Shown piece after piece: positions 20,315 through 39,923 of a stretch of 64,000 nt of DNA; position 1 is the first letter of the stretch, and each line of letters begins with the position of its first letter. Location: positions 1 through 64,000 of the IMG/VR virus record IMGVR_UViG_3300046714_000360; one strand, 5' to 3'. The DNA is from a virus. The position numbers and the translations under genes were made by a program. The notes under the pieces were generated by a model. That model saw only the letters and a list, made by a program, of their open reading frames with translations, made no database searches and was not told the origin of the DNA.

Positions 20315-20328
20315 AAAGAGGAGCAAGT

Positions 20329-23217
20329 ATGAAACGGATTGTTAACGCCATCGACGAGTACCTAAAGACTCATGACATTTGGGGCAGGCGGAAAGTTCCA
20401 GTTGAGCTAGAAGCCTCTCAGGAGCTTGATGAGTATCTTAAGACACACGATATCCATGGGAATCTGTTAATGACTCCCGCTACTCCCGATGTAGGCAATT
20501 CTGAACATGAGGAGAGCCTACCGCTACCTGCAGAATTCTATGAGCCCACTTCCCGTAGGCGCACAAGGAAGCCTACTCTCAGTCAACGTGTCGCTGTGTT
20601 TGTTATTTTGGCTACTTGCTTTTTAGCAGCTTTCACAGTAACACAGTTCGATCTGTCTACACAAGTGAAAGGTAAGCTGCCCCAAGCCAGTTTGCCAGAT
20701 ACACTTGATGCTCCTTATTGGGGTAATGCTCCAAGGTTCGATGCATCAGATGCGAAGTTTGCTGGTGCTGATATGTGTGGCAATCTTGTGAATGTGTTGT
20801 CTGATGCTACTTACCTTGCCGCCACAGCAGCTATCATTGATGCCACAGGTTTTGCAGGCGCACAGAATTGTACTACAAATCCGTTTCCTGCTACAGCTCA
20901 TCCGACAAAATGGATGTTTGGTTCTTCTTTACATGTCAACTTGACTGTTTTAGCGACTACTGTCGCACCACCGCCCACAGCTTCTGTGTTAACTGTTCCC
21001 GGCACACCAGGTTTGTCAACTTCTACTAGTGGTGGTTCTCTTGGTGCCTCTGCAGGCATTGGTGTTAAGACTGAATGGGAGTCTGTCTATAATCCAAGTA
21101 CGCCTTCAGCGGAAGGCACTATCACTACCGGCGCAGGTGCTACCAATAGTGTGACTGTTACATCTCCTACTAGTCCGCCATTTGGTGCTGTATGCTATGA
21201 TGTGTTCTCTGCAACGCCTGTAGGGAGTGGCTGGAAAAAGACAAATACAAATTGTATTCCGCTAGGTACGAATTTCGTTATCAAGACGATAGGGGCTGGT
21301 GCTGTTCCTGCAACCTCTAATAATGCGACCGTAGATACCTTTGAGGTTGACGGTGGTGGGTCTACTTGGTCATTGAATAATTCCGCCGCTGCATTGTCTA
21401 TTGGAACCGATGGCACCTATTTCCATGATTTGAATGTAGTCACTTCAGGTACATCAGCAAATGCTACAGGCTCTGTATACATCAATCAGAACGTGCAGTA
21501 CGCGATGATGGAAAGGATATCGTGTTCAGGTGGTGGTCACTGCATTCGTATGGATGCTAATGACTCTCACATCACGCTTAGAGACATCCACTGTAATGTT
21601 CCTACGACGTCGGCGAGTTGTATAGTCGCTGCCAATGGCAATTCAGATTTACGGATTTATAATGTGTTAGAAGACAATTCTGTAATTGCTACTGGCGGCA
21701 ATCTCCAAGGCGTTATTAATTTGAATGGTGCTACAGACTTTATTGTAGATGGTGTCATTGCCAGAGGCCTAGACTTTTCAAATATTACTAATGCAGCTGC
21801 GATCATTATTCAGAATAGCACTCGTGGCATCGTCACAAATTTTCAGTGTAAGGATCTTGTCAATTCAGATTGTGTTGCCGTACTTGCATTCTCGTCATTC
21901 ATTAACATCAGTAATGGAATTGTTACTGGCACAACTGTAGGTGCAGGTGCAGGTGTTGGTGCAAACAGTAATAACGGTGATGCAATAGATGTGTTCGGCG
22001 CCGGGCCAGTGCAAATCTCTAATGTGTATGCTAGTGGTTTGGGCCTTGTTGGTGGCAATCGTTTCCCGTGTTATGAATTCTACGACTCTAATCAGGTTGT
22101 AGCTACCAACATAACGTGTACAGGTTCTACAGGTGAAGGCGTAAACATGTTCGGCTGTACAGGCTGCAAGATTGATAATTCCACTATGACTCTGAACGGG
22201 AAGTCAGGGCTTTTGGCACAAGATGGGACAGCAACAGTTAGTTGTAATGGGACTACTACAGTCACGCGCACTGCAGGTTTTCCTTTCGGGCCCTGGCCAG
22301 TTGGTACGTCGATTACCATCAATGGCGTTGCACATACCATAGCAGTGGTGCCTACAGTTGATACTGTTCTTACGACAGCTGCTAACTGTACCACTGGTGC
22401 AGGACAGGCATTTATAATCTCTACGCAAGATACATCGCTCGGGAATGATCAGTTCGATGACAATGGAACTGCCTCAGTATCTGCTACGAGTTGTTCAGGT
22501 GTTGATCTTCTTGGCAGTAGCAATGTTAGTGTAGAAGGTGGCTCAGCGAATGATAATCATCCGACTGCCACTAAGAAGCAGTGTTTCGCAATTAACGCGA
22601 GTGGTGCAGGATCTTCTTTCAGTGCTTTTGCTTTTGACCCTTCTGGGAATCTCGGAGGTACTTGCTCTAACGAAGTAGGGCCTGCTGTTGCGGGTGACCA
22701 TTGGTTGTGTGACATTCCAAAGAAGAGTGCATTCAGCCTACGTGATCCAGGATCAGAGACCATCTTTACGAGTAATGTGAAACGTGTTACTGCCAATGTT
22801 ACGAACGGCTCGACGACGATGGCCAATTTGACTGGTATGGTTTGGAGTATAGGCGCTAGTAAGAAGTACAAAATTGAGTGTGATTTTATTTATCAGGCAG
22901 CCTCCACAGGTGGTTTGCAAATAGCCTTTACAGGTCCTGCATCACCTACACAGGTGGAGTACTGTATGCATGCAGACAGTTCTGCTACTGCATTAAATGA
23001 TGGAACTGCGTGTACGCCAGCTGCTAATGCGTCTTTTGCCACTAAGGTAGGTGCAGGTGTAGTGGCCACCATTAATACTAACTTCCCTGCTCGCTTTTCT
23101 GGTGTGATAGAGAACGGTACCTCTGCAGGGACTTTGCAAGTTCAGTTTGCCAGCGCCGCTGCTGTGAACACAATTGTCGAGCGCGGCTCATCTTGCGGTT
23201 TGTGGTCGATCAACTAA
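20329..23217 (+). CDS. tail fibre/tailspike-like protein with parallel beta-helix-like repeats, 962 aa
   Basis: VTQFDLSTQVKGKLP motif; long run of short N/G/T/V-rich repeats (..NVLEDNSVIATGGNLQGVINLNGATDFIVDGVIARG..). Confidence 0.7.
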   Translation: MKRIVNAIDEYLKTHDIWGRRKVPVELEASQELDEYLKTHDIHGNLLMTPATPDVGNSEHEESLPLPAEFYEPTSRRRTRKPTLSQRVAVFVILATCFLAAFTVTQFDLSTQVKGKLPQASLPDTLDAPYWGNAPRFDASDAKFAGADMCGNLVNVLSDATYLAATAAIIDATGFAGAQNCTTNPFPATAHPTKWMFGSSLHVNLTVLATTVAPPPTASVLTVPGTPGLSTSTSGGSLGASAGIGVKTEWESVYNPSTPSAEGTITTGAGATNSVTVTSPTSPPFGAVCYDVFSATPVGSGWKKTNTNCIPLGTNFVIKTIGAGAVPATSNNATVDTFEVDGGGSTWSLNNSAAALSIGTDGTYFHDLNVVTSGTSANATGSVYINQNVQYAMMERISCSGGGHCIRMDANDSHITLRDIHCNVPTTSASCIVAANGNSDLRIYNVLEDNSVIATGGNLQGVINLNGATDFIVDGVIARGLDFSNITNAAAIIIQNSTRGIVTNFQCKDLVNSDCVAVLAFSSFINISNGIVTGTTVGAGAGVGANSNNGDAIDVFGAGPVQISNVYASGLGLVGGNRFPCYEFYDSNQVVATNITCTGSTGEGVNMFGCTGCKIDNSTMTLNGKSGLLAQDGTATVSCNGTTTVTRTAGFPFGPWPVGTSITINGVAHTIAVVPTVDTVLTTAANCTTGAGQAFIISTQDTSLGNDQFDDNGTASVSATSCSGVDLLGSSNVSVEGGSANDNHPTATKKQCFAINASGAGSSFSAFAFDPSGNLGGTCSNEVGPAVAGDHWLCDIPKKSAFSLRDPGSETIFTSNVKRVTANVTNGSTTMANLTGMVWSIGASKKYKIECDFIYQAASTGGLQIAFTGPASPTQVEYCMHADSSATALNDGTACTPAANASFATKVGAGVVATINTNFPARFSGVIENGTSAGTLQVQFASAAAVNTIVERGSSCGLWSIN

Positions 23218-23521: not shown

Positions 23522-23977
23522 GTGGCTGTGGACGCTGTTATAGTCAAGAAGACGTTAGTAGAAACGCCTAGCGGTAGGATAGAGATAATTCATAATGGTG
23601 TGTTTACAGTGCTTCAGTACAACACATCTTGTGAAGATGCTCTGCCCTACTGCAAAGGCATGTGTTGTGGTCTTCGTGCTGGCTACAATGTTCTATTAAA
23701 ACCAGGTGAAGAAAAAGAGTTTGAGTCCATTCCTCACCCTATGTACCTTGGACGATACATGCTTGCATCTGACCCAAAAGACATGCACTGTGTCTATCAG
23801 GATAAGATGAACGGATTCTGTACAATACACAGTAACAAGCCGCAAGGCTGCCGCGATTGGCATTGCTCTCCAGGCGGGCAAGGTGAGGACGTTGTGAAGC
23901 GAGATCTCGGTTGGTTCCTAAGTCCGATGCAAGGCAATCTGCAAGACAAGGAGATCAAAGATGCCGAACTTGCTTGA
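23522..23977 (+). CDS. Cys-cluster protein of the YkgJ/FliB (CxxCxxCC-like) type, 151 aa
   Basis: CEDALPYCKGMCCG and HCVYQDKMNGFCTIHSNKPQGCRDWHC resemble the UPF0153 pattern; spacing is not canonical. Confidence 0.45.
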   Translation: MAVDAVIVKKTLVETPSGRIEIIHNGVFTVLQYNTSCEDALPYCKGMCCGLRAGYNVLLKPGEEKEFESIPHPMYLGRYMLASDPKDMHCVYQDKMNGFCTIHSNKPQGCRDWHCSPGGQGEDVVKRDLGWFLSPMQGNLQDKEIKDAELA

Positions 23978-24776
23978 AGCCGTTTCCGCACAGCTTCCAC
24001 AAGATGTTGTGTTACATGCTGTGTCTAACTCGAAAGTGAATGGGAAGGACGACAAAGTCATGCTCACTCATAGTCTCGGTGTGAGTAGAGAGCCTGACGA
24101 TGCTCACAGAGAGTTGAACTCACTCGGTTACACAGTGACACGTGCGTCAACAGTCACACATCAGAACGTTGCCAAGCCTGGCAGTACGCGCCAGCTGACA
24201 CCACAAGGCACACAGACCTGGAAGTACAATCATCCGCAGGGTTACAAGGCCGAGATGAACATGCGGGACAGTGGCGGTACTTCTGTCATGATCAATGGGC
24301 CACGTCATCACCATGAACGCTTTCGGGATCGCATGGACATGAAGCCACATCCTGAGTTCAAGAAGATGGATGCAGACAAAGCCAAGGCCACACAAGACGC
24401 CAAGAAACCAAAGGTGCGTGTTGATGCACGCAGCGATGTTGAGCTTGCCTTATCCCGTAGCCACTTGTATGTGAAAGCAGGCGGGCCTGGCAGCGGGCGT
24501 CATCCAGGTGCTTTAAAAGATGCTGGCTTCAAGAAAGACAACGGTATCAGCCGTCGGGCAAGTTCTGCCACTCAAGAGAATCACTATCAGCATGCGAATG
24601 GTGCTTATTATAAGGTCACTCGCAATGTGGACCAAGCTGGAAAACAGACAGATGTGAAAAGCTGGCGTCACATGAGTCAAGACAGTAAGTCTACTAAAGG
24701 AGATGGCGAGGCTAGTCTAGTTGCCCATATAAAGAACACAGGTAGACAAGGCATCAGTCGTTACGAAACAAAGTAA
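23961..24776 (+). CDS. hypothetical protein with GGPGSGR motif, 271 aa
   Basis: KAGGPGSGRHPG at nt 24477-24509; AAGGAG SD. Confidence 0.65.
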   Translation: MPNLLEAVSAQLPQDVVLHAVSNSKVNGKDDKVMLTHSLGVSREPDDAHRELNSLGYTVTRASTVTHQNVAKPGSTRQLTPQGTQTWKYNHPQGYKAEMNMRDSGGTSVMINGPRHHHERFRDRMDMKPHPEFKKMDADKAKATQDAKKPKVRVDARSDVELALSRSHLYVKAGGPGSGRHPGALKDAGFKKDNGISRRASSATQENHYQHANGAYYKVTRNVDQAGKQTDVKSWRHMSQDSKSTKGDGEASLVAHIKNTGRQGISRYETK

Positions 24777-24777
24777 G

Positions 24778-25032
24778 ATGTCTGTGCTCAAGATCCAGTC
24801 CGTGATAGACAATCGTTACCGGCAGCTTAGGCTGAAGGTGATTCGCGGAGAGATGTCTGTAGAGGAATGCAAGACTAGGCTGCAAGCTAGGTTTACTGCT
24901 TGTGTTAGTCTACAGCGCCAGCGAGGAGACTTGTATCTCTCTTCTGCTGCGAAGAGGAGTTTCGCCTATTCAGCTAAGGTTGAGGCAGCTGCAGATAGAG
25001 AATGGTTAGGAAAGAAGGAGGACAATGAGTAA
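24778..25032 (+). CDS. hypothetical protein, 84 aa
   Basis: ORF track; starts 1 nt after upstream stop. Confidence 0.5.
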   Translation: MSVLKIQSVIDNRYRQLRLKVIRGEMSVEECKTRLQARFTACVSLQRQRGDLYLSSAAKRSFAYSAKVEAAADREWLGKKEDNE

Positions 25033-25801
25033 TCGATTAGCAACGTTCAGTGGGAAGTTTGGAGATATCTTGTGGTCACTTGCCACAGTCCGGCAGCTTG
25101 CACTCCGTTACAACAAGCAGCTCGATTTTGCGTGTATGCCACAGTATGTGTCGCTCATTCCGCTTATCCTTAATCAGGAGTACATTGACCACGCGTTCGT
25201 ATTGAATGAATGGACATGTACTGGTTCTCCGCACGGTGATCAGCCGTGGCAAGCACCAGTTTCGAATTTAGCCTATGAGGAAGTGTTTCACCTAACTTAC
25301 CAGCGGCATCCATCGCCGACGCCCCTAGCGCTGTTTATCGCACAACAAAACGGTGTCCAGTTGGATGGCTCACCCTTCTTAGACACACAACATTGGGAAC
25401 AATGGGCCAAGGGTGTTGCTGCACAGACTCCCTATATTGCTTATGCCTTTAATCCGTTGCACGCCGAGCAGAAGCTACAGTTTCTAGCGCAGCTACAGGT
25501 GCTTTGCAAACAAGGTGGTGAAAGTAATCCGCTTTGGGGATTCGAGTTTCTAGATCTTACTCAGTATGAATGGGTACAGACACCAGCTCTTATAGATAGT
25601 GCGCTTGCCTTTGTCGGGTGCAGGTCTGCGAACTACGTGATCGCTCACGGTGTAGGGCAGAAGGTGGTGTGCTACGAACCAGAACCGTGGCGCACTGAAT
25701 GTACATATGGTTATCCGTATGGTACAGAAAAGCTTTGCATGAATTCAGAAGTAGCCCATGCTCAGTTGCTTGAATGGGTGAAGGACTGGAAACCAATTTA
25801 A
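25025..25801 (+). CDS. GT9 (heptosyltransferase)-like glycosyltransferase, 258 aa
   Basis: GAAGGAGG SD; FGDILWSLATVRQL and C-terminal LAFVGCRSANYVIAHGVGQKVV resemble GT9 motifs. Confidence 0.5.
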   Translation: MSNRLATFSGKFGDILWSLATVRQLALRYNKQLDFACMPQYVSLIPLILNQEYIDHAFVLNEWTCTGSPHGDQPWQAPVSNLAYEEVFHLTYQRHPSPTPLALFIAQQNGVQLDGSPFLDTQHWEQWAKGVAAQTPYIAYAFNPLHAEQKLQFLAQLQVLCKQGGESNPLWGFEFLDLTQYEWVQTPALIDSALAFVGCRSANYVIAHGVGQKVVCYEPEPWRTECTYGYPYGTEKLCMNSEVAHAQLLEWVKDWKPI

Positions 25802-25812
25802 GGAGAAGAAGT

Positions 25813-26259
25813 ATGCGTTTGATGAAGCCGAGTCCAGGAGAGGCGTATGACCGCATTACAATCCTGAGCTTAAAAATTCAAGCTGCACAAGGAAGAGGTC
25901 TGCTAACATCTAAAGCTGTGTTCGAGGAAGAGCACAGCGCATTAGTCGACTACATGATCGAGAAGCATTACACAGTGCCGACTGGTCTCGGTGATGAGAT
26001 GTTCAAGATCAACAGTCGGCTTTGGGACTTGGAGGATCAGCAACGGGAAATTTTAGCTCGTATCACAGATCCCTTGAGATGCGAGGAGCCGTATGCATAC
26101 AGCTTCTTGAACAATGCTATTACTGTCCTCCGGTTGAATGATGCCCGCGCAGAGACAGTGCAGAAGATCAATGCTGCTTGCGGAGTCAACGCACCAGAAA
26201 AACTTCACTACGTGAAGGAGTCTCAGATTGCAAACGCTGATCAAGACCATTCAGGCTGA
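25813..26259 (+). CDS. hypothetical protein, 148 aa (LWDLED motif)
   Basis: TAAGGAG SD before ATG25813; motif is reminiscent of DUF4254 from memory only. Confidence 0.5.
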   Translation: MRLMKPSPGEAYDRITILSLKIQAAQGRGLLTSKAVFEEEHSALVDYMIEKHYTVPTGLGDEMFKINSRLWDLEDQQREILARITDPLRCEEPYAYSFLNNAITVLRLNDARAETVQKINAACGVNAPEKLHYVKESQIANADQDHSG

Positions 26260-26944
26260 GGACCATGAGTTCATCAAGGATGAAGCAGCAGAGATTGCTG
26301 GGGTAGCTACTTCACTCGAACGGCAAGGCATTCGTTGCGATGTAGGACATCCAGAACGCTTTTGGGAGTATGGCTTTGCTCTTCAAACGCTTAGAGGAAT
26401 ATATCCTCAGCTACAAGGTCGTCAGGTTTTGGATGTAGGTGCAGGCTGGAGTCCTTTAGGGCCAACGTTGGCTGGTAGTCGTGTTCTGGTGTCAGAAGTA
26501 GAAATTGATTTTGCATGTTATCCAGAGCGTAAGAAAATCAATGAGCTACTTGGGTACTCAGGTTATAGCGCTATCAATTGGATTCAAGGTACAGCAAGCA
26601 GTATGCAACAACATGCCGAGCTCTTTGATGCAGTGTTCTGTATATCAGTCATGGAGCACGTAGACAGGGCGTACGAGTTGAAGATGTGGGCAGACCTTGC
26701 TAAGCTTGTAGCTCCAGGTGGTTTGTTATTTATCACTTGCGACTGTGTTCCTGACCGTGGACCTAAGGTGTTTGACAATCTGCGACAGACAAACTATATG
26801 ACACAGGATCTTATGGCACGGATAAGTAATCTCGAGTCCAACTATCAGATGGAGCCGTTACTCGGGCAGCCTGATTATGATTATCATGGCAATTTTGTTT
26901 ATGACTACACGTTCTTTATGGCTGCCATGAGGAAGAAGCTATGA
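26228..26944 (+). CDS. class I SAM-dependent methyltransferase, 238 aa (TTG start)
   Basis: VLDVGAGWSPLG (motif I), FDAVFCISVMEHV, VAPGGLLFIT; AAGGAG 8 nt upstream of TTG. Confidence 0.7.
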   Translation: MQTLIKTIQAEDHEFIKDEAAEIAGVATSLERQGIRCDVGHPERFWEYGFALQTLRGIYPQLQGRQVLDVGAGWSPLGPTLAGSRVLVSEVEIDFACYPERKKINELLGYSGYSAINWIQGTASSMQQHAELFDAVFCISVMEHVDRAYELKMWADLAKLVAPGGLLFITCDCVPDRGPKVFDNLRQTNYMTQDLMARISNLESNYQMEPLLGQPDYDYHGNFVYDYTFFMAAMRKKL

Positions 26945-27885
26945 GGGTAGGTCTCATCACAACTTGGGAGGAGCGTTGCGGTATCGCTGAGTATGCTAAG
27001 AATCTCGTTAACAGTGTGACTGCTCTAAACGATGGTGTCACATTTGAGGTGCTTGACGTACGTCAGTCTCAGGCAGCTATTCACGCTGCAACTATTTCAT
27101 GTGATGTAGTCGTGTTCAATTATGAGCCAGGGTTGTATCAGCATCTGCCAATAGTTGAGATGGTGCATCTGTTGAGGCGTACACAGAAAGCTTGTATTTT
27201 AATTCTGCACACGTCACATGCAGGCGACAACAGGAGCGTACTAACAGCACCATTCACCAGAGTTGTTGTGCATGAGAAGACGCAGGACGGTTTTGTCCAT
27301 ATTCCGATGGGCGTGCCAGCGCCGTCGCCTCGTGTAAGGGACGTTGTTCCAAATCTTGTAGGTACTGTCGGTTTTCCATTTCCTTGGAAAGGATTTGACA
27401 TTGTTGCTCAAGCTACAGCGAAGCTAGATCTTATGTGCCTAGTTATCGCACCAGACTCTCCCCATTGGGATACGTATGCAGTTGCTAAATATCTCCGCGA
27501 ACAAAATCCTAACTTGTCTGTAAATACAGCATGGAACTCACAGGAAGATGTTGTAGAGATGCTTAGTCAGTGTGCAGTAAATGTGTTTGCTTACTCAGGG
27601 CACCCAGCAGGGATCAGTGGCGCAGTTAAGCTAGGTGTTGCTGCCCAGCGTCCTTTGGTCATTTCCACATGCAGGCAGTTCAGAGATATGTTAGAGTACT
27701 ATCCAGAAGAGGTGTATGTCGCTGATCCGTTGTCTGTAGATACTGTTGTGGAACAGATCCAGTTAGCGCTGTACACAAGAAAGTTTCCAGTTAGAATGTT
27801 ACAAGAAAATGCTTGGCCTGTGGTAGCTTCCATGTACCGTAACGTTTATCTTGAAGCATTAACTGAGGTGAGAGGATGCTTGTAA
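26941..27885 (+). CDS. GT-B glycosyltransferase (GT4-like), 314 aa
   Basis: ATGA overlap; MRVGLITTWEERCGIAEYAKNL N-terminus typical of GT4 enzymes. Confidence 0.65.
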   Translation: MRVGLITTWEERCGIAEYAKNLVNSVTALNDGVTFEVLDVRQSQAAIHAATISCDVVVFNYEPGLYQHLPIVEMVHLLRRTQKACILILHTSHAGDNRSVLTAPFTRVVVHEKTQDGFVHIPMGVPAPSPRVRDVVPNLVGTVGFPFPWKGFDIVAQATAKLDLMCLVIAPDSPHWDTYAVAKYLREQNPNLSVNTAWNSQEDVVEMLSQCAVNVFAYSGHPAGISGAVKLGVAAQRPLVISTCRQFRDMLEYYPEEVYVADPLSVDTVVEQIQLALYTRKFPVRMLQENAWPVVASMYRNVYLEALTEVRGCL

Positions 27886-29192
27886 AACATTGGACGCATT
27901 GTAGAGTTTGTCAGAGTTCCCCGCTTGCGAGTGTTATTAAGTTCGGTTCTCAGCATATTGTTGGTTTTCCAGAACATGTTGCCTTAGGAGAGAGTGCACC
28001 ACTTGATTTGGTGTTGTGCACGAAATGTGGATTGCTTCAGCTAGAGGATTCCGTCGATGCTTCGTTCTTGTTCAGGCACTTTTGGTATCAGTCAGGTATT
28101 AACGAGCAGATGAAAGCTGCACTGTCTGAAGTTGTTAACAAAGCAGTCCAGATTGCCGCTCCTGTTCAAGGAGATGCTGTGCTTGATATAGGTTCCAATG
28201 ACGGCACATTGCTTAGTTTTTATCCTGCTGGTGTATTGCATAGAGTAGGAGTAGAACCAGCAGAGAATATAGAACAGATCGATAAGTCGTCTGATGTACT
28301 TGTCCATGAGTTCTTTTCCAAAGCTGTTGGTGTGCTTTCTAATTGTCAGTTCAAGATCATAACTGCTATTGCGATGTTCTATGATCTCGATGACCCAGCA
28401 GAGTTTCTACAAGGCGTTAGGCAGGTGCTTGCTCCTAATGGCGTATTGATCATTCAAATGAATGCTCTCAGTGTTATGTTGAAGAACTTAGCTTTCGACA
28501 ATATCTCGCATGAGCATGTGTGTTACTATTCGTTGACCACTCTCAAGTTCCTTGCTGAAATTTGTGGCTTTGACGTAATCGATGTTTCTGAGAACTCTGT
28601 CAATGGTGGTAGTCTTCGAGTTTATTTGATGCAGCGAGGTGCCATGCCTGATGGCATTACTGATGTAGAATTCATGCAAGGCCGTGCACGTGTACATCTT
28701 ATGCTGAAGGAAGAGGCAACAGCTGAGTTGCTGTCACCTGTTACGTATAAAAGGTTCCAAAGTAAGATCACTGCTATACAGACTGAGGTAAATCGCTTTG
28801 TGCATACCGTTGTTGCCAAAGATAAAAAGGTTTGTTTATATGGTGCGTCTACCAGAGGCACTATGTTGATGCAGACTCTCAATATAGCCAATTACGTATT
28901 AGGTGCTGCAGAAAGGGATGCGAAGAAGTACTATCGTACGATGGCAGGCACTGCTGTGAGGATATTCCCAGAAGCGTTACTCAGAACTGTTGCTGACTAT
29001 TTTGTTGTACTGCCATGGCATTTTCTTCCGTCCATTCTCGAACGCGAAAAAGAATGGGGCAAACGAGGAGGACGTTTCGTTGTACCATTACCAGAGCCCA
29101 GGATGTATATGTGCAGTGAAGGTCCTGAAGGAGAGTGGATTTGGAATTCTCTACCGTTGGGCGATGAGTTGTATAATCAAGTAGGACTTTAA
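27876..29192 (+). CDS. NDP-sugar C-methyltransferase-like protein (zinc knuckle + SAM MTase + C-terminal domain), 438 aa
   Basis: CRVCQS..LVLCTKCGLLQL, VLDIGSNDG, TylC3-type three-domain layout. Confidence 0.75.
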   Translation: MLVKHWTHCRVCQSSPLASVIKFGSQHIVGFPEHVALGESAPLDLVLCTKCGLLQLEDSVDASFLFRHFWYQSGINEQMKAALSEVVNKAVQIAAPVQGDAVLDIGSNDGTLLSFYPAGVLHRVGVEPAENIEQIDKSSDVLVHEFFSKAVGVLSNCQFKIITAIAMFYDLDDPAEFLQGVRQVLAPNGVLIIQMNALSVMLKNLAFDNISHEHVCYYSLTTLKFLAEICGFDVIDVSENSVNGGSLRVYLMQRGAMPDGITDVEFMQGRARVHLMLKEEATAELLSPVTYKRFQSKITAIQTEVNRFVHTVVAKDKKVCLYGASTRGTMLMQTLNIANYVLGAAERDAKKYYRTMAGTAVRIFPEALLRTVADYFVVLPWHFLPSILEREKEWGKRGGRFVVPLPEPRMYMCSEGPEGEWIWNSLPLGDELYNQVGL

Positions 29193-29200
29193 GGAGGAAG

Positions 29201-30193
29201 ATGAAAGCATTGATTACAGGCTGTTGCGGACAGGATGGTTACTATCTGAGTAAGTATCTTATGTCACTTGGTTATGAAGTCTGGGGAGGTGCACGGCATA
29301 CGCGTCCTGATCTAACCGTCAATTGGGTATTTCTCGATCTGAAGTTTCATGACACTGTCCAAAGTGCTATTCGCAAAGCCGATCCTGATGAGATTTACAA
29401 CCTAGGTGGGCAGTCATTTGTTCCCCCAAGTTGGATTCGCCCAGATGAGACGTTTGATACGAACACGTCTGGCCTTGCTCGCATTCTCGAGTTTGTTGAG
29501 GGGTATAATCCTAAGATCAAGGTGTACCAAGCATCTAGCTCAGAAATGTTTGGTAATGTCGCTGGCTTCTTGGATGAGGAAGCTAGGATGGCACCAGCTT
29601 CACCGTATGGCATTAGCAAGCTTGCTTCCCATGAACTCTGTCGTGTGTATAGGCAGAAAGGACTGTTCATTGTCAGTGGCATCTGCTTTAATCACGAATC
29701 ACCGGAACGTGGTCCTGAAATGGTGACACGGAAAATCACACAAAAAGTAGCCAAGTGGAAGTTAGGTGATGAGACGCCGTTGCATCTTGGCTCTTTGTCT
29801 CCATATCGTGATTGGGGATTTTCTGGCGACTATGTTAAAGCAATGCACATGATGTTGCAGCAAGCCATACCAGAAGATTATGTGGTAGCCACAGGAGAGA
29901 CGCATACTATTCAGGAGTTTATGGATAAAGCGTGTGCGTATGCTGGTGTGACACCGCGCATTGAGGTTGATCCACGTTTCTTACGAGCTGGTGAGATAAA
30001 GATGCTTTGTGGCAACTCGATGAAAGCGCGTAGGACGTTTGATTGGGCGCCTACTGTCAGTTTTGAGCATCTCGTTCATATGATGGTCGATGCTGATGTT
30101 GCACGAGAGACTGAACGAGTCAGCTCGTTCACTACACAAGAGTGTGTCAATGCAGCGACTGACGCTGTAATAAATTCTTTTGAAAGGAGGTAG
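29201..30193 (+). CDS. gmd: GDP-mannose 4,6-dehydratase
   Basis: ITGCCGQDGYYL, YNLGGQSFV, SSSEMFG, SPYGISKL, FNHESPERG, VTRKIT, RDWGF; colinear with E. coli Gmd as recalled. Confidence 0.9.
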   Translation: MKALITGCCGQDGYYLSKYLMSLGYEVWGGARHTRPDLTVNWVFLDLKFHDTVQSAIRKADPDEIYNLGGQSFVPPSWIRPDETFDTNTSGLARILEFVEGYNPKIKVYQASSSEMFGNVAGFLDEEARMAPASPYGISKLASHELCRVYRQKGLFIVSGICFNHESPERGPEMVTRKITQKVAKWKLGDETPLHLGSLSPYRDWGFSGDYVKAMHMMLQQAIPEDYVVATGETHTIQEFMDKACAYAGVTPRIEVDPRFLRAGEIKMLCGNSMKARRTFDWAPTVSFEHLVHMMVDADVARETERVSSFTTQECVNAATDAVINSFERR

Positions 30194-30400: not shown

Positions 30401-31321
30401 ATGGATCTAGCCGCAGCAGTTGCGTTACAAGGCGCAGCTCACAAGTTGGATGGGCGGACAGAGTTCCAAGGTCTCAAGATCAGTATTGAGAACGAAGTGG
30501 GCTCTGTCCGTCGTGGTGTGAATAAGAAGACTGGTAAAGCCTGGGAGACGCGTATGCGTTATCCGTATGGCTACATCAGGCTCACACAGGGCGTTGACGG
30601 AGATCACGTTGACTGTTTCCTCGGTCCTCATAAGCATGCTCGCTATGCGTATGTGATTCATCAGAATAATCCTAATACTGGCAAGTACGACGAAGACAAG
30701 GTGATGCTCGGCTTCACGTCAGCCACTGCTGCGAAGGCTGCGTACAATGTGCATTATGACCAGCCTTGGAAGTTCTATGGTTCTATGGATGAGGTGCTCA
30801 TGGAGGATTTCATTCGGAAGGTGCTCACTACAAAAGACAGGCCGAAAGTAATCAAGGCTCAGCGGCTAGTGTTGCGTGCAGGTGGGCCTGGTAGTGGTTG
30901 CCACGGTGAGAATTGTGGCAGACCACCTAAGTTTCAAGACGTGATTGATAAGAAGTACTTACGTGCGGGAGAGAAGGCAGGTTACGAAAATGTAAAGCAA
31001 CAGTTTCAGAATTCCACTATCGAATATAAGACTGTAGACAGTGCCAGCATAGAGCGTCAGAATACAGATTTGACACAGTCTGCCGTTGCTCGTTGGGAAA
31101 AGAAGATCAATGATGGTAAGGATATCCCAGCATTCGTTGTTGCTCCTAAAGAGCATGGTGGTTATTTTCTATTAGACGGGCATCATAGGTTAGAAGCTTT
31201 AGGTAAAGATCAGCCTGTTCGTATCGCAGTACTTCAGCCGAAAGTTGGTTGGCATTGGACGCGGCATGTTAGTATGCGTACTCGTGAGATTTGGATGGAT
31301 CTAGAAAGGGAGGAAGTATGA
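30401..31321 (+). CDS. multidomain protein: pyrophosphatase-like N-domain, GGPGSGC..CGRP linker, ParB-like nuclease C-domain, 306 aa
   Basis: YPYGYIRLTQGVDGDHVDCF (family-I PPase-like); RAGGPGSGCHGENCGRPPK at 30878-30931; FLLDGHHRLEAL (ParB/Srx DGHHR). Confidence 0.65.
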   Translation: MDLAAAVALQGAAHKLDGRTEFQGLKISIENEVGSVRRGVNKKTGKAWETRMRYPYGYIRLTQGVDGDHVDCFLGPHKHARYAYVIHQNNPNTGKYDEDKVMLGFTSATAAKAAYNVHYDQPWKFYGSMDEVLMEDFIRKVLTTKDRPKVIKAQRLVLRAGGPGSGCHGENCGRPPKFQDVIDKKYLRAGEKAGYENVKQQFQNSTIEYKTVDSASIERQNTDLTQSAVARWEKKINDGKDIPAFVVAPKEHGGYFLLDGHHRLEALGKDQPVRIAVLQPKVGWHWTRHVSMRTREIWMDLEREEV

Positions 31322-32028
31322 TTGCAGTGCTCACTGCCGTGCTAGGAAGCAAGTTCGGGAAGTACTTTGTTGAATTGGGTGTAGTGGGAGGTCTTGTATT
31401 CGGGGCATATTGGTATGCTGTGAATCATGGTAAGGCTGTTCAGAAGGACGAAGACAACAAGGTGCAAGCACAGGAGCTCGAGAAAGCTCGGCAGGTAGGC
31501 GCTGATGCGAAAGACCTTTTGGTTAAGCAGGCACATGACCACGAGCTAGAAGCAGACCAGCGCGCTCAAGAAGATCGTGCCAAGAACGCTGCACTTGTGT
31601 CTGTTCTGCAAGGGTTAGGTGTAAAAGAAAAAGAAGGAAAGACTCAAGTGAGTCAGTTGCCAGATTCTGAGCTACGGAGTGACATCATACACAAGCTTAG
31701 TGTGCGCGCTGCGAATGATATGACTGCTTGCTATCTGCCTTCTGAGGAACGTGTGCTCGATAATGCGATTACTCAGTACCCTTTATGTGTGCAAGGCAAG
31801 GCAGTACTCACAGAACAGGTGACTACGAAAGAGCACGAGGTACAGGATCAAGTTGTCATGGCCTCTTCTAAGCAGGCGACTATTGATGCTTTGCAGGTGT
31901 ACATCACACAGTTAGAAAAAGATTATAAGGTATTGTACGATCAGCATCCTCCAAAGAAGAGATCGATCAAGTGTTTGTTCATTTGGAAGTGTGCGATTAT
32001 CCCAACCAACATTGTCGTTGCCAAGTAG
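31318..32028 (+). CDS. membrane-anchored coiled-coil-like protein, 236 aa
   Basis: AGGGAGGAAG SD before ATG31318; N-terminal hydrophobic IAVLTAVLG..VVGGLVFGAYWYAV. Confidence 0.6.
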   Translation: MIAVLTAVLGSKFGKYFVELGVVGGLVFGAYWYAVNHGKAVQKDEDNKVQAQELEKARQVGADAKDLLVKQAHDHELEADQRAQEDRAKNAALVSVLQGLGVKEKEGKTQVSQLPDSELRSDIIHKLSVRAANDMTACYLPSEERVLDNAITQYPLCVQGKAVLTEQVTTKEHEVQDQVVMASSKQATIDALQVYITQLEKDYKVLYDQHPPKKRSIKCLFIWKCAIIPTNIVVAK

Positions 32029-32037
32029 GAGGCAGTC

Positions 32038-32253
32038 ATGGATCACCGTACAGCTGTCGCTCTTTATGATCCACCATCTTCAGAGAAGACAGGTCCTGGT
32101 GGTTGACTGATCAAAATAGGCGACCGCGTGACGGTCGATAGTGCGAAGAATCAAACAGGTGTAGTGCTTAGCCGCAAAGGGAGAGAGCTCACAGTACAAA
32201 TGAACCCGTCCGGTGACAAGGTTACCGTTGACCAGCGTGAGGTGCATCTGTGA
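32038..32253 (+). CDS. KOW-like small protein reading frame interrupted by in-frame TGA (32104-32106): recoding, split ORFs or pseudogene
   Basis: AGGAGG SD + ATG32038, 22 codons, TGA, then 48 in-frame codons LIKIGDRVTVDSAKNQTGVV..; no ATG after the TGA. Confidence 0.4.
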
Positions 32254-33158
32254 ATCTCCAAACTTATATGTCATTGTATGCAGGAGGTCCTGGTAGTGGA
32301 TGTACAGGTAGCAACTGTGGCAGACCAGCAGGAAGCAGTTCTTCAAATGAACATAAAGCGGGTGACCATGTGTACTCTGTGCATCAGTACACTGCTGATA
32401 AAGGTGTCATTGAAAAAACGAGTGGCCCTTGGCATCTTATCAGTACTCCTACTAAAGGCAGTCAAGTTTTCCATGATAAGGAGCTTACCAAAGTTCCAAG
32501 GTCTGTTCATAATGTGGAGATGGTTGCACGGCTTAGTACTGTAGTGGATGATGCTATTACTCGGTTTGCTGCTCAACAGCTTCGTGATACAGCGGAGCCT
32601 GTAAAGTATTCCCATCAAGCTAAGGCACAAGCTAGGCAGAATAGGGAGTACAATAATGATATGTTACTGAATAGATACATTGTCGGTAACAGGCTAGTCG
32701 ATGTAGTCCACTCTCTTGCAAAAAGTAATCCTGCTGCGTTTGCACAAGCGCTGAAAGCTAATCAGATCTTTCATAGGGAAGAAGCTCGCCGTTCATCTGA
32801 AGACTCGTTTAGGCACACTGACAATGTGAAGGTGATGGGAGAACAGCTCAAAGGGTTGCAGCTACTTAGAGAAGCGCTTACTACAGTGCAGCATACAAGT
32901 CTTAAGAGCGATGCTGATATTGCTGTTTATCATATGGAAGGGTTCCCTGCCTTTCATCCGCCATCGCTAAAGAATCCACAGCACATACCAGCTGATCAGC
33001 CTGGAGAGACTGACGACCGTTTCTTGGATGTCACCAAACGTAAGTCGCGTGAGAATGCATTATTCAATGACCAGCTAACGAGGAACCAAGGACAGCCTAC
33101 AACGGTGCGGACTACCTTGGTAGAACCCGGCACTTATGTTCCCTTTGATAAGTTATAA
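32250..33158 (+). CDS. hypothetical protein with N-terminal GGPGSGC..CGRP motif, 302 aa (GTG start)
   Basis: YAGGPGSGCTGSNCGRPAG at 32280-32333; GTGA overlap with upstream stop. Confidence 0.65.
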   Translation: MNLQTYMSLYAGGPGSGCTGSNCGRPAGSSSSNEHKAGDHVYSVHQYTADKGVIEKTSGPWHLISTPTKGSQVFHDKELTKVPRSVHNVEMVARLSTVVDDAITRFAAQQLRDTAEPVKYSHQAKAQARQNREYNNDMLLNRYIVGNRLVDVVHSLAKSNPAAFAQALKANQIFHREEARRSSEDSFRHTDNVKVMGEQLKGLQLLREALTTVQHTSLKSDADIAVYHMEGFPAFHPPSLKNPQHIPADQPGETDDRFLDVTKRKSRENALFNDQLTRNQGQPTTVRTTLVEPGTYVPFDKL

Positions 33159-33192
33159 ATAAGAAGAAAAGACTCCGTACAATTCATTGACC

Positions 33193-33849
33193 ATGAACTC
33201 GCATCCTGGGAATCCTATGCAAGGTAAGAAGCACTCTGCTTCTTCTATTCGTAAGATGCAGAAAGCTGCACAACAGCGTTGGAAGGATAAAGATTATAAG
33301 ACACGTTGGGTTGCTGCAGTTAGAAAGCGTTGGAAAGATCCTAGGTTTGCAGCAAGAAGGAGACGTGAGCTCAAAGATCCAGTTAGGTGTTCTAGGATCT
33401 CTGCTGCCCATGTAGGTAAAGTTATGCCGCGTAGCGCTATTGCTAAAATGCGTGCCACTAAGTTGTTGCCAGCAAATCGTCGGGCAGCGTCAGAACGTGC
33501 AAAGAAGCAATGGCTATCTCCAGGTATGCAGCAACGTATGCATGCTAAAGGATGGAATACAAAACTTGAGCAGTTAGTATCTGCAGTGTTGTCTCAGTTA
33601 GGTATCAAGTTTAAACAACAGCCTGATATTCCAGGCGTAAGTTCGGTTCCTGATTTTCTGTTGCCTAGCTTTAATAGAATCGTTGAGTGTGATGGTGCTT
33701 ATTGGCATACACGTCCTGAAGTGCAAATGAGAGACAGACGGTCTACAAGACGATATCGTAAAGCAGGTTATCATGTATCGAGGTGGTCAGACAAGTTTGT
33801 AAAAAGGCAGTCTTTCATATCTCATGTTGTGAGGTTGCTAGGTTTATGA
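33193..33849 (+). CDS. free-standing homing-endonuclease-like protein: NUMOD3-type repeats + Vsr/DUF559-like PD-(D/E)XK domain, 218 aa
   Basis: GKKHSASSIRKMQKA, GKVMPRSAIAKMRAT; VPDFLLPSFNRIVECDGAYWH..RDRRSTRRYRKAGYHVSRW. Confidence 0.6.
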   Translation: MNSHPGNPMQGKKHSASSIRKMQKAAQQRWKDKDYKTRWVAAVRKRWKDPRFAARRRRELKDPVRCSRISAAHVGKVMPRSAIAKMRATKLLPANRRAASERAKKQWLSPGMQQRMHAKGWNTKLEQLVSAVLSQLGIKFKQQPDIPGVSSVPDFLLPSFNRIVECDGAYWHTRPEVQMRDRRSTRRYRKAGYHVSRWSDKFVKRQSFISHVVRLLGL

Positions 33850-34550
33850 CACCACCTACAGATATTGTGATTTGTTTACATTCGACTGCACAATACCCGA
33901 TGATTGAGTACTTCAAACCGTGTGTCGAGACTGTGAGGCAGCACACCCAGGCCGTCCGCTTCATTTTCGTGAGCGATGGTTGTGATGCTGCACATGACCA
34001 GGAGATGCAGGAATACATCAAACGGTTCCCTGAGAGCTTGTATCTCCGGACGCCGAAGCAGTTGTGGTTCACTCGTGCCCATAACTTAGGTCTCCGGTTT
34101 GCCCGGACACCATGGGTCGTGATGCTAAACGCGGACACGGTTGTTGATGCCGGTTGGCTGGAGGATCTTTATGATGTTCGGGATGCCGTATCCGCAGAAG
34201 GATACAAAGTGGGTCTTGTCGGAGTGGAGCAGTCTGGAGAAGAGCAGAGGCGCTACCACAGAACTGCTGAGCCCGGATTTGTCACAGGCCACTGCTATCT
34301 TGCAAGCATGGATGCATTGTATGAAGCCTCAGCTAATAGAGGAACGCCAGGCATCTATCTTGATGAGACACAACAGAAGACGATACATATATATTCCGAC
34401 AACGAGATCTGTTACAGAATGAATCAGTTAGGTTGGACGACTGTAACATCCTTCAAAACTGCTGTTGGTCATCATGGAGGTAAGGCTTGGGGATATGATT
34501 TAAGTGTGTTGGGGCTTCCACTAGATGCTGTTGCCCCAAGATGGATTTGA
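33846..34550 (+). CDS. GT2 family glycosyltransferase, 234 aa
   Basis: ATGA overlap; IVICLHS.., FIFVSDGCD, NLGLRFA..VVMLNADT. Confidence 0.7.
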   Translation: MTPPTDIVICLHSTAQYPMIEYFKPCVETVRQHTQAVRFIFVSDGCDAAHDQEMQEYIKRFPESLYLRTPKQLWFTRAHNLGLRFARTPWVVMLNADTVVDAGWLEDLYDVRDAVSAEGYKVGLVGVEQSGEEQRRYHRTAEPGFVTGHCYLASMDALYEASANRGTPGIYLDETQQKTIHIYSDNEICYRMNQLGWTTVTSFKTAVGHHGGKAWGYDLSVLGLPLDAVAPRWI

Positions 34551-34905: not shown

Positions 34906-34982
34906 GGGTCATTAGCTCAGCTGGATAGAGCGTTTCACTACGAATGAAAAGGCCGGGGGTTCGAGTCCCTCATGGCCCACCA
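34906..34982 (+). tRNA. tRNA-Arg (anticodon ACG), CCA encoded
   Basis: Hand-folded cloverleaf: GGGTCAT/ATGGCCC acceptor, GCTC/GAGC D stem, TTTCA-CTACGAA-TGAAA, GGGGG-TTCGAGT-CCCTC. Confidence 0.9.
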
Positions 34983-37081: not shown

Positions 37082-37245
37082 TTGTTTATGTTAAGTGCGT
37101 GACTGGTGTTATTGTTCATAAGGCTTGGAGTGATTTCGGTTTTGCTTTGCGGTTTCCTATCTACGGTAATGTGCGTATCTTGCAGCTCAATTGCATGCTG
37201 CCTGATCCACTACCTATCAATGTAAGCGTTGAGGCTTTGCACTAA
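37078..37245 (+). CDS. hypothetical protein, 55 aa
   Basis: ATGA overlap at 37078-37081; internal start of track ORF 37045-37245. Confidence 0.4.
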   Translation: MIVYVKCVTGVIVHKAWSDFGFALRFPIYGNVRILQLNCMLPDPLPINVSVEALH

Positions 37246-37246
37246 G

Positions 37247-38065
37247 ATGACCAAGCAAGAAGCAAGACGGAATCTTAAAGATGTCCGCAACCGTTTAAAA
37301 GGGTTGCGGGCTGATGTGCGTCGGAACGAGAGCGCAGAACGTAGATACCTCAAAGCCGCCAAGAAGATGAAGCCAGGCGGTGGCAGGAACAAGGGCAATT
37401 CGTTTGAGCGTGTTGTAGCTCACAAGATTGTCACTGCATTTAGTAAAGCCGGCTTTGACTTTGACGATCGCGATTGCTATCGTACACCATCGTCAGGCGG
37501 TCACAGGTATGCGAAGCACGAAGACCCAGGCGATCTTGTCATCGCTCCAAAGCTTCTCAAGGTATTTCCATATTCGGTAGAATGCAAGGACCAGAAGAGT
37601 CTTGAACTGTATCGCTTCTTCATTCCGTTCAGTAGGCATAAGTCATCCTGGCCCGAACATCAGTTCCTTGCACAAGCACTTGCAGCAGCTAAGCTTAAGA
37701 AGAGGCTTGCTCCGATGCTCGTGTTCAAGTATGCTTCTAAGATCTGGTGTGCTTTCCCTTGTCCGATTATGACCTATCCGCCGTCGATGACATTCCTGTA
37801 TCCTGATCAGTATAGTGAAAGGGCACACTGGCAACTGACTTTACTCAGTCGCTTCTTGAAGCGTCATGCAGAGCTGATGAAGAAGATAGGACATTCTAAA
37901 TTTGTGCAAGCACCCGCAGATGAGCGGGCATCTGATATCCACTATCGTGCTCACTGTGAGCCTATTGAGGATGTTGTAGACAAAAAGAAAGCTAAGAAGG
38001 TTAAGAGCAGTTACAAAGATGGCGACTATGGCAAGCTCGCAGACTTCATCATGCAAAGGAAGTAG
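37247..38065 (+). CDS. Hjc/PD-(D/E)XK-type nuclease-like protein (possible Holliday junction resolvase), 272 aa
   Basis: GNSFERVVAHKI..RTPSSGG..PGDLVI..YSVECKDQK fits the archaeal-Hjc-like pattern. Confidence 0.55.
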   Translation: MTKQEARRNLKDVRNRLKGLRADVRRNESAERRYLKAAKKMKPGGGRNKGNSFERVVAHKIVTAFSKAGFDFDDRDCYRTPSSGGHRYAKHEDPGDLVIAPKLLKVFPYSVECKDQKSLELYRFFIPFSRHKSSWPEHQFLAQALAAAKLKKRLAPMLVFKYASKIWCAFPCPIMTYPPSMTFLYPDQYSERAHWQLTLLSRFLKRHAELMKKIGHSKFVQAPADERASDIHYRAHCEPIEDVVDKKKAKKVKSSYKDGDYGKLADFIMQRK

Positions 38066-38665
38066 ATGATCATTCAAAAGAAATATTCGTTCGATTCCAG
38101 TCACATCTTGCCTAGGCACAAAGGCAAGTGTGGTAGGTTGCACGGTCACACGTATGTGGTAGACATCATCATTGAAGGCGAGTTGGATGAAGAAACCCAG
38201 TTCGTTCTTGATTATGGTGATTTGGATGTGTTCTTAAAGCCGCTCATCGAACAGGTAGATCATCGGCATCTGAACACTTTCATCCAATATCCGTCTGCGG
38301 AGAACATCTGTATCTACTTTGCGGACAAAGTCACTGACGCATTAAGATTGCATTGTGCATGGGCACTGCATCGTGATTATCAGCGACTTTGCGTTAGCGT
38401 CTCTGAGACACCAAAGACCAGCGCACATTGGGATTCACACAGCGACTATGATCTCCGCCTTTTGACTTTCGGCACAGGTTGGAAGGCTCCTACATCACCT
38501 TATATTGTTGCTTGCCAAGCCAATGATGTGACAAGGCAAAATGTCGTCATGAGAGATGCAGGTATCATCAATGAACAGCGAGCACTTGCTACTGAAGCAC
38601 TTGCCACTTATACAGCCGCGCTGATCAACATCCAGTTCCTTGAAAGTCTCGTGTTGAAGAAATGA
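38066..38665 (+). CDS. queD: 6-carboxy-5,6,7,8-tetrahydropterin synthase (QueD) with C-terminal extension, 199 aa
   Basis: FDSSHILP..CGRLHGHTYVVDI..VLDYGDL..VDHRHLN. Confidence 0.85.
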   Translation: MIIQKKYSFDSSHILPRHKGKCGRLHGHTYVVDIIIEGELDEETQFVLDYGDLDVFLKPLIEQVDHRHLNTFIQYPSAENICIYFADKVTDALRLHCAWALHRDYQRLCVSVSETPKTSAHWDSHSDYDLRLLTFGTGWKAPTSPYIVACQANDVTRQNVVMRDAGIINEQRALATEALATYTAALINIQFLESLVLKK

Positions 38666-39678: not shown

Positions 39679-39923
39679 TAGGACACATACTGTTGTATGG
39701 CTTTTATACGCTTGTGTGTTTAGGTGTTTGTATTGGTGTTTTTTACGGTTATGCTTATCTAGGTGCATATAGTACAGTGAAAACTCTGCCACGGGAGGCC
39801 ATGTTCTTTTGTAGCATTCACGGTTACATGTCGAAGTCTGCAGTTATCACTTTTTATAATGTAGAGTACTGTCCTATCTGTTACAATGCCAGTCTTGGAA
39901 ACGCGGAGCGTATTGATGGATAA
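39675..39923 (+). CDS. small membrane protein with CxxC pair, 82 aa
   Basis: ATGA overlap; hydrophobic N-terminus; CSIHG..CPICY. Confidence 0.55.
   Translation: MIGHILLYGFYTLVCLGVCIGVFYGYAYLGAYSTVKTLPREAMFFCSIHGYMSKSAVITFYNVEYCPICYNASLGNAERIDG

Follow-up and report, generated by a model that had tools for sequence, protein, structure and literature searches.

In phage T4, gp21 cuts at L/I-x-E↓ (the arrow marking the cut) within a 10-residue capsid-targeting sequence, the N-terminal part of which targets the protein while the last residues direct its processing (PMC9026906). For SPN3US gp245, the cut follows a motif of three residues, P3-x-P1 (PMC10052503), and both this protein and phiKZ gp175 cleave after Glu, releasing propeptides of variable length, between 20 and 254 residues (PMC10052503, PMC9026906). 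Polyvalent proteins have been predicted by Iyer et al. 2017 to be packaged and proteolytically processed (PMC5512222). Cleavage also occurs in LexA at V-A-A↓G-E-P and in UmuD at V-Q-C↓G-F-P (cut positions from PMC9578287 and UmuD' 1umu_A); both site sequences were checked in PDB chains. In this study, we report a short peptide motif built around the hexapeptide GGPGSG, present in four proteins encoded on a 64,000-nucleotide stretch of viral DNA (positions 1 to 64,000 of IMG/VR virus record IMGVR_UViG_3300046714_000360), the whole of which is referred to here as the window. All four sites are true copies of this short linear motif, which is widespread and marks off the modules of effector-type (polyvalent/MuF-type) proteins in a group of uncultivated large phages.

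The original prediction, made from the sequence without database searches, was that an A-G-G-P-G-S-G motif is shared by four otherwise dissimilar proteins. Translation of its four sites gave AGGPGSGCNPAVGHCGRPAG (16690-16749), AGGPGSGRHPG (24477-24509), AGGPGSGCHGENCGRPPK (30878-30931) and AGGPGSGCTGSNCGRPAG (32280-32333), all as predicted, and the motif Ala lies at residue 63, 173, 160 and 11, respectively, as had been said. The carrier open reading frames (ORFs), all on the plus strand, are 16504-17577 (357 aa), 23961-24776 (271 aa), 30401-31321 (306 aa) and 32250-33158 (302 aa). The hydrophobic residue noted upstream of the motif was confirmed and could be placed more exactly: counting from the first Gly of GGPGSG, the conserved unit begins three residues earlier, with an aliphatic residue at position -3 (V, V, L and L). 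The copies, together with the short leader that precedes the fourth, are as follows.

16684-16749, plus strand: motif copy 1, with a six-residue Cys-loop, V-S-A-GGPGSG-C-NPAVGH-C-GRP-AG; residues 61-82 of the 357-aa protein (16504-17577); profile score 22.4 bits
24471-24509, plus strand: motif copy 2, Cys-free, V-K-A-GGPGSG-R-H-P-G; residues 171-183 of the 271-aa protein (23961-24776); profile score 23.6 bits
30872-30928, plus strand: motif copy 3, with a four-residue Cys-loop, L-R-A-GGPGSG-C-HGEN-C-GRP-P; residues 158-176 of the 306-aa protein (30401-31321)
32274-32333, plus strand: motif copy 4, with a four-residue Cys-loop, L-Y-A-GGPGSG-C-TGSN-C-GRP-AG; residues 9-28 of the protein at 32250-33158; profile score 22.7 bits
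32250-32282, plus strand: 11-residue N-terminal leader of the same protein, (GTG start) N-L-Q-T-Y-M-S-L-Y-A, which conforms to the leader consensus of outside proteins

The sequence GAGG lies about 8 nucleotides upstream of the GTG at 32250, and the gene call on a Logan contig uses the same start. Copy 4 is kept in the full-length homologues of this protein (P0155, P0066 and P0062).

AGGPGSG occurs exactly four times in the window, against 1e-4 occurrences expected from the amino-acid composition of the long plus-strand stop-to-stop frames. A profile constructed from more than 300 outside instances recovered exactly these four sites from the six-frame translation of the window, at 22.4-23.6 bits, with the next best site scoring 4.9. 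When the motif was masked, the four proteins showed no mutual similarity at E<1e-4, and thus the description of them as otherwise dissimilar was upheld. The four DNA copies differ at synonymous sites and, the 52 copies in related loci between them make use of all synonymous codons, with Ser drawn from both of its codon families; the conservation, and hence selection, is therefore at the level of the peptide and not of the DNA. Upstream of the N-terminal copies, the DNA shows no conservation. Given this and the scrambled synonymous codons, the motif was rejected as a repeat at the DNA level, as a recombination site and as a regulatory element.

The spread of the motif was determined by an exhaustive profile search with the four window copies against 1.84 billion protein representatives, which returned 394 clusters at E<=1e-3, of which 49 reach E<=1e-10. 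The copy, position and variant counts given below refer to the best 150 of the 394 cluster representatives, and the profile used in this census, being built from the window copies, is biased towards them. These 150 proteins contain 337 copies, with 1-8 copies per protein. Degenerate DNA patterns applied to IMG/VR revealed the motif in multiple copies per contig, in contigs of approximately 55-131 kb; pattern matches in GC-rich contigs, being out of frame, were not counted. The motif is not common in unrelated cellular proteins, which had been named as an outcome that would refute the original interpretation: the four-residue Cys-loop form, to which this search was confined, gave one true match among 185,579 species genomes (GTDB). 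This match lies on a 7.5-kb, phage-like contig of a metagenome-assembled genome (MAG), with three leader-bearing genes. A cellular origin was rejected, the five GTDB pattern matches being four out-of-context matches in GC-rich sequence and the one on the phage-like MAG contig.

No PDB chain contains the motif, the sole match being the remnant of an expression tag. No Pfam, PHROGs or NCBIfam model covers the motif region in the four window proteins, and no Pfam or NCBIfam model covers it in 16 outside carriers that were scanned singly. Neither GGPGSG nor GSGRH was found in a phage context in the searchable literature, and no junction motif is mentioned in the papers on polyvalent proteins (PMC5512222) and MuF toxins (PMC5576092). 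A tblastn search of cultured phages with the 25-aa motif consensus and with the string GNFGHAGRPG gave no match; the low-complexity filter probably masks these queries, and the result has little weight. The G(H)xGRPG-like strings that the original prediction had associated with phage proteins were found in a related form only once, in P0248 (FFKGGTGSGNHDHAGRLGQVGGS). A broader family of such sequences may exist, for example GGTGSGNHDHAGRLGQVGGS, also in P0248. The window copies are real, and the peptide itself is very conserved and apparently undescribed.

The consensus of the motif is [ILVM]-x-[A/G/S/C, or K in some lineages]-G-G-P-G-S-G, followed either by a Cys-bounded loop and G-R-P or by R-H-[P/K]. 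Three variants of the downstream part account for all but 24 of the 337 copies, which have rarer forms: C-x-G-x-N-C-G-R-[P/K/H], the form of window copies 3 and 4, was counted 124 times, C-N-P-x-x-G-x-C-G-R-P, the form of copy 1, 41 times, and R-H-[P/K]-[E/G], the form of copy 2, 148 times (about 44% of 337). Because the Cys and R-H forms co-occur within single proteins, the Cys-less window copy is a regular variant; the claim of a shared motif stands, and GSGRHPG is not a degenerate copy but a second, equally common form. Position +7 is C or R in 313 of the 337 copies, and K-[ST] never follows. An Asn is invariant in both Cys-loops, standing before the second Cys (x-N-C) in the four-residue loop and after the first (C-N-P) in the six-residue loop.

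Upstream of GGPGSG, position -3 is I, L, V, M or F in 243 of 247 internal copies, and position -1 of the internal copies is Ala (177), Lys (45), Gly (15) or Ser (5). Copies found with DNA patterns that left the flank free show the same preference at -3 and occasionally also have Asp, Glu or Cys at -1. Proteins have Lys at -1 either throughout (14 proteins) or not at all, none being mixed; K-K pairs at this position numbered 68 against 8 expected, and the observed clustering was reached in 0 of 5000 shuffles. The small residues A, G and C at -1 mix within contigs.

In 84 of 149 proteins, the first copy lies no more than 25 residues from the start, and in 43 of these 84 GGPGSG starts at residue 12. 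The resulting 11-residue leader has, in a profile of 40 outside proteins, the consensus M-N-L-x-x-T-[IL]-x-[LI]-[YQH]-A, being conserved at residues 2, 3, 6 and 7 besides 9 and 11. The median distance from one copy to the next is 140 residues (range 39-989), and approximately 5% of last copies fall within about 56 residues of the C-terminus. The placement of the motif at N-termini or between domains, as originally proposed for the window proteins, also applies to the outside carriers, in which it is found at junctions or after the leader.

Further features of the window proteins, on which the analysis of the carriers draws, are listed here.

30449-30817, plus strand: InPase domain (polyvalent-type inorganic pyrophosphatase), PF18823, E=2.6e-43, residues 17-139 of the protein at 30401-31321
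31061-31219, plus strand: weak ParB-like (DGHHR) region with LLDGHHRLEA, PF08857 at E=0.04 (below the family cut-off) and phrog_1033 at E=2.8e-4; low AlphaFold2 confidence
16552-16674, plus strand: small Cys-containing module (QARIVKRGKKHCVVSEDGSKNLGC...) directly upstream of copy 1, with masked blastp matches to L132, L134, P0053 and P0173 and a weak match to phrog_3684
32952-33155, plus strand: second shared element, the C-terminal module FHPPSLKNPQxVPxDQPGETDDRFLDVTKRK...RTTLVEPGTYVP, recognised by invariant alignment columns and blastp

Only the third window protein has a recognised domain, the InPase domain, which is followed by the sub-cut-off ParB-like region, and motif copy 3 sits in the linker between the two. 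Proteins 1, 2 and 4 have no recognised domain: no Pfam or NCBIfam match was found for them, and marginal PHROG matches were obtained for protein 1 alone. In PHROGs, the InPase domain matches large minor-head, DarB-like and virion proteins, aligning with their internal parts. A Pfam census of 65 outside carriers listed known enzyme domains only, with NUDIX (10), InPase (7), Zeta toxin (6) and Phage_Mu_F (3) being accompanied by several ADP-ribosyltransferases, GNAT and ATLF (anthrax-lethal-factor-like zincin). The domains of the outside carriers as a whole also include ART-PolyVal and DRAT among the ADP-ribosyltransferase types, topoisomerase IB and SPP1 gp7-like domains. HExxH was seen in 23 of the 150 outside carriers, where about 5 were expected. 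The association with MuF-like and polyvalent proteins, which the original prediction had proposed, is supported by the domain content of the carriers (InPase in 30401-31321; NUDIX, Zeta toxin and Phage_Mu_F outside). Outside carriers of 700-2847 aa are multi-domain proteins lying clearly within the polyvalent range of 2-15 domains. The motif was rejected as a general InPase or polyvalent feature; it marks a subgroup only, since 53 IMG/VR loci with InPase homologues lack a true copy.

Each motif-adjacent module was compared with the other 50%-identity representatives, and homology was confined to one side of the motif in 1,249 of 1,422 (88%) junction-by-subject comparisons, indicating that modules are exchanged at the motif. 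The window modules recur elsewhere in other combinations; P0062, for example, consists of the window protein 32250-33158 and an extra N-terminal module with its own leader and R-H copy. The Cys-containing module at 16552-16674 likewise recurs in motif-bearing and related proteins, and is situated just upstream of a motif copy in both the window and L134. The motif nearly always precedes a further module. In InPase homologues, the domain's own C-terminal ...K-I-x-A provides positions -3 and -1, and GGPGSG follows the domain directly in 15 of 120 close homologues. Where there is no downstream module, the protein ends in a degenerate remnant of the motif (e.g. ...ALYAQGRPVTGPGG-stop), and thus the motif goes with the presence of a downstream module.

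The stand-alone InPase proteins P0185, P0187, P0188, P0192 and P0213 end in ...PGG just past a leader-like helix (e.g. ...RMEAAMALYAQGRPVTGPGG), and these ends look like decayed motifs left after the downstream module was lost or separated. In L143, the gene order of which is that of the window at 30401-34550, a large gene that follows the InPase gene after one short ORF opens with the full leader and motif. Many InPase and multi-motif proteins have the FHPPSLKNPQ... module at their C-terminus or close to it, and it is seen in the tails of InPase homologues. It has no Pfam or PHROG match and is predicted by AlphaFold2 with low confidence; it may be the actual anchoring or packaging part.

Structures of two window proteins were predicted using AlphaFold2, from shallow alignments of 7 and 43 sequences. 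In the protein at 30401-31321, residues 18-143 (InPase) reached a predicted local distance difference test (pLDDT) score of 91-98, while residues 150-200 scored 40-46 and were mostly coil, with no regular secondary structure across the motif. Residues 1-86 of the protein at 32250-33158 scored 30-38.

We tentatively favour the reading that the motif is a signal for a single factor of the phage that acts in trans; the likeliest candidate is a protease of maturation or processing, which would cut at [ILVM]-x-A↓G. The layout of P3 and P1 and the fixed leader point to a protease-like site, comparable to those of T4 gp21, SPN3US gp245 and LexA/UmuD, and the exclusive use of either Lys or non-Lys residues at -1 in each protein to one reader per lineage. 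In such a scheme, a single factor would read all copies in a genome, and the cut would be placed between position -1 and the first Gly, with an aliphatic P3, a small P1, Gly at P1' and Pro at P3'. At an N-terminal copy it would remove the 11-residue leader, which would have a role like that of the T4 capsid-targeting sequence, and at internal copies it would split multi-module proteins into single effectors. Each freed effector would start with GGPGSG followed by the Cys-loop or R-H, a conserved new end that may have an additional function. On this reading, the four small window proteins, each from a gene of its own, would all be addressed and trimmed. From the ideas put forward in the original prediction, the anatomy of the motif thus favours the protease site and the capsid-targeting or ejection tag together. 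A broader proposal, which we regard as possible yet rather doubtful, is that leader and motif form a general address code for injected cargo, directing loading into the head, being cut by a co-evolving A- or K-type protease and leaving a new N-terminus that is used during ejection or in the host.

The resemblance to T4 lies in the short N-terminal leader (10 residues in T4, 11 here) on unrelated internal or ejected proteins, including an ADP-ribosyltransferase, and in the aliphatic-x-P1 triplet at the end of that leader. P1 is Glu in T4, whereas here it is Ala or another small residue and, in some lineages, Lys; the P' side is unconserved in T4, whereas here GGPGSG and 9-11 residues beyond it are near-invariant; and the present element also recurs inside multi-domain proteins. 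There is no sequence similarity to the T4 system, and no gp21 homologue was found in the window. As in the giant phages, one short motif would serve one head protease and many head or ejection proteins, mostly with N-terminal propeptides and with multiple sites per protein, but the giant-phage sites have other residues (cleavage after Glu), no fixed propeptide length and no conserved downstream element. Of the S24 self-cleavage sites (LexA, UmuD, lambda CI), those of LexA and UmuD share the order aliphatic-x-(Ala/Cys)↓Gly-x-Pro with the [ILVM]-x-[A/C/G/S]-G-G-P found here; these are four matching positions, possibly due to chance, and S24 cleavage is carried out by the protein's own C-terminal domain. 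Polyvalent proteins and MuF toxins have the same domains (InPase, ParB-like, ADP-ribosyltransferases, Zeta toxin, zincin, MuF) and the same shuffling (PMC5512222, PMC5576092), although the window modules are mostly separate small genes and not parts of one giant protein.

A short invariant peptide at a point of module exchange is also a likeness to the junction motifs of polymorphic toxins. These are VENN in CdiA and DPxGL in Rhs, the Rhs motif being a cleavage site as well. Their sequences and delivery are unrelated to those described here, and they occur once per protein, whereas the present motif occurs up to eight times and at N-termini too. By analogy, the motif would act most like a targeting-plus-processing signal of the T4 type that is at the same time a junction motif of the polymorphic-toxin kind; it shares sequence with neither.

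Several observations weigh against a protease as the reader, or against a location of these proteins in the virion. The strongest conservation is on the P' side (GGPGSG and the next 9-11 residues), where prohead-protease sites are little conserved, and a protease site alone is therefore insufficient; the exposed end, GGPGSG with the Cys-loop or R-H, probably has a role of its own. The candidate readers are a prohead protease, a zincin of the polyvalent proteins or a Ser-Lys-dyad peptidase, none of which was found in the window: no HExxH zincin, prohead protease or S24/S26 peptidase was recognised in the 64 kb or in the 7 kb upstream. Major capsid and portal genes were likewise not recognised in the window or the 7 kb upstream, so that the four window proteins are no more than putative virion proteins. 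The ten carriers that were looked up by exact sequence are all metagenomic hypothetical proteins. The division between A and K at -1 could have arisen from shared descent rather than from co-evolution with a reader. Finally, since the alignments were shallow, the low AlphaFold2 confidence is support and not proof.

A search of plus-strand frames of at least 80 aa gave no plausible HExxH zincin in the window, which represents about half of the 124.7-kb source genome. An S24/S26 domain was found neither in the window nor among the carrier proteins, and clustering of all ORFs of the motif loci yielded sugar-metabolism and effector-like families but no protease. Four small outside proteins of 214-353 aa (P0100, P0126, P0133 and P0150) combine the 11-residue leader and the motif with a zincin-like domain (hhHE(L/F/W)GHxhDYS); they are candidates for a processing peptidase that itself bears the tag. 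The location of the motif genes in the region of the tail-fibre-like genes at 19110-23217 is the sole pointer to packaging and can be taken as a hint.

A different function for the same anatomy would be that of an uncleaved docking or hinge handle, in which an N-terminal strand, a Gly-rich turn and the Cys-loop or Arg-His bind a common partner, such as the capsid interior, the portal, DNA phosphate or a shared metal. The Gly-rich cargo-loading peptides that bind the HK97-fold shell of encapsulins are a precedent for such a handle. It would account for the peak of conservation at GGPGSG and the next 9-11 residues, which goes beyond what protease subsites need, for the two invariant Cys, often with His, of the Cys variants, and for the presence of a separate copy on every module, stand-alone proteins included; lineage-wide A or K at -1 would suit any co-evolving partner. 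We nevertheless consider the handle unlikely: about 44% of copies (R-H) have no Cys, the Cys variants offer two ligands only, both forms occur in one protein, the motif is present in no solved structure and AlphaFold2 predicts no local fold for it. Moreover, processing sites more typically show the kind of -3/-1 pattern and fixed leader (11 residues) seen here. The same counts weaken the metal knuckle of the original prediction as a general explanation; with two Cys at a spacing of 4 or 6, none at all in 148 of 337 copies and no PDB match, the motif does not correspond to a zinc knuckle or ribbon. It is improbable that the motif is instead a site of post-translational modification, with the Ser of GGPGSG glycosylated or the Cys pair cross-linked or modified by phage enzymes. 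In its favour are the sugar-nucleotide, methyltransferase and glycosyltransferase genes (25025-30193 and 33783-34550) interspersed with the motif genes, the GDP-mannose-dehydratase-type gene found close to motif genes in 9 contigs and a radical-SAM/SPASM gene at 194-1198. This association is perhaps mere synteny in one phage group, however, and the families found repeatedly around motif genes do not include radical-SAM; Cys is missing from the R-H variant, the motif fits no known sequon and the fixed N-terminal leader is left unexplained.

A passive flexible linker or recombination joint, which has no reader and is inherited along with the shuffled modules, has a slight chance of being correct. 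It would agree with the reshuffling at the motif (88% one-sided homology) and with the low AlphaFold2 confidence, but not with the near-invariance of 7-16 residues across otherwise unalignable proteins, nor with the conserved, fixed-length leader at N-terminal copies. The synonymous codons are scrambled, and there is hence no DNA homology to drive recombination; a degenerate remnant also replaces the motif when the downstream module is absent. Very improbable, in our view, is either a degenerate P-loop-like phosphate-binding loop or a self-cleaving element acting by Asn- or Gly-Ser-based autoproteolysis. The hydrophobic strand followed by an identical GGPGSG hexapeptide resembles the adenylate-kinase Walker A loop, GGPGSGKGT, a true P-loop (AGGPGSGKTT) is present in L092, and the literature on GGPGSG includes adenylate-kinase and thymidine-kinase papers. 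The Walker Lys-Ser/Thr is absent from all copies, however, +7 being C or R in 313 of 337, and after the motif there is no NTPase or other conserved fold, with AlphaFold2 confidence low. Self-cleavage would agree with the invariant Asn beside a Cys in both Cys-loop variants, but the R-H variant has no Asn and known sites of this kind require a strained, folded context. Two further candidates were rejected or set aside. In the double-glycine leaders of C39 substrates hydrophobic residues are expected at -4, -7 and -12, whereas here they are found at -5 (and at -7 in the leaders), with -4 variable in internal copies, and genes for a C39 or ABC transporter are absent from the window. The L27/Prp leader of Firmicutes phages (NLQFFA↓S) has a different spacing, and position -2, which would be its P1, varies among the internal copies.

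The window is part of a phage genome, with almost all genes on a single strand. Megablast of 20 kb of the window against 50,697 deposited phage records revealed no close relative, and few window proteins have PHROG matches. Identical sequence is also present on a 60.5-kb Logan contig, and the window proteins are also recorded on a 124,662-bp contig. The recognised phage genes include the following.

19110-23217: tail-fibre-like genes
42796-44565: large terminase subunit

The tail-fibre-like neighbours at 19649-20314 and 20329-23217 have a common N-terminal segment, TQFDL(T/S)TQVKG(T/K)LP, after a hydrophobic stretch; the latter encodes a 962-aa protein with no family match. Directly upstream of, and overlapping, the gene of motif copy 2 is a gene for a 151-aa Cys-rich protein (23522-23977), the family of which is also found near motif genes in L004, L095 and L098. 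The 300-aa protein encoded at 17819-18721 has no family match; its family adjoins motif genes in 9 different contigs, and some of its members contain the motif (L003, 408 aa; L096, 268 aa).

Many sugar-nucleotide, C-methyltransferase and glycosyltransferase genes are located at 25025-30193, 33783-34550, 38662-39678 and 58278-59168, and this set (GDP-mannose-dehydratase type, Methyltransf_13/14, GT2 and GT9-like) is interleaved with the motif genes. The radical-SAM enzyme at 194-1198, with a SPASM domain, is of the peptide-modifying type and is followed by a 268-aa protein of no known function (1200-2006). A PDDEXK/RusA-like gene, a PTPS (QueD-like) gene at 38066-38665, a glycosyltransferase gene and a second radical-SAM gene at 41026-41868 lie together at 37229-41868, a group that looks like a 7-deazaguanine-type DNA-modification set. 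A GrpE-like protein (60745-61647), a VWA-domain protein (54436-55887), an ATP-dependent DNA ligase (52217-53104) and a tRNA-Arg(ACG) (34906-34982) are also encoded.

Phage proteins that are carried in the virion and co-injected with the DNA are central to host takeover and counter-defence, and in uncultivated phages they are unrecognisable from sequence. A near-invariant peptide that flags candidates for injected effectors in hundreds of clusters, and that also marks where their modules end and start, provides a practical means of finding and dissecting them. If it is a processing or loading signal, it would offer a route to how polyvalent proteins are cut into working parts, and the A-type and K-type lineages would be a natural experiment for finding the reader. 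The peptide could possibly serve as a cargo-loading tag, as the T4 capsid-targeting sequence came to do. Even as a binding handle that is never cleaved, it would represent a shared adaptor of a new kind; and if the address code is true, injected effectors and their module boundaries would be readable directly from the sequence of uncultivated phages, and foreign proteins might be loaded by the same means.

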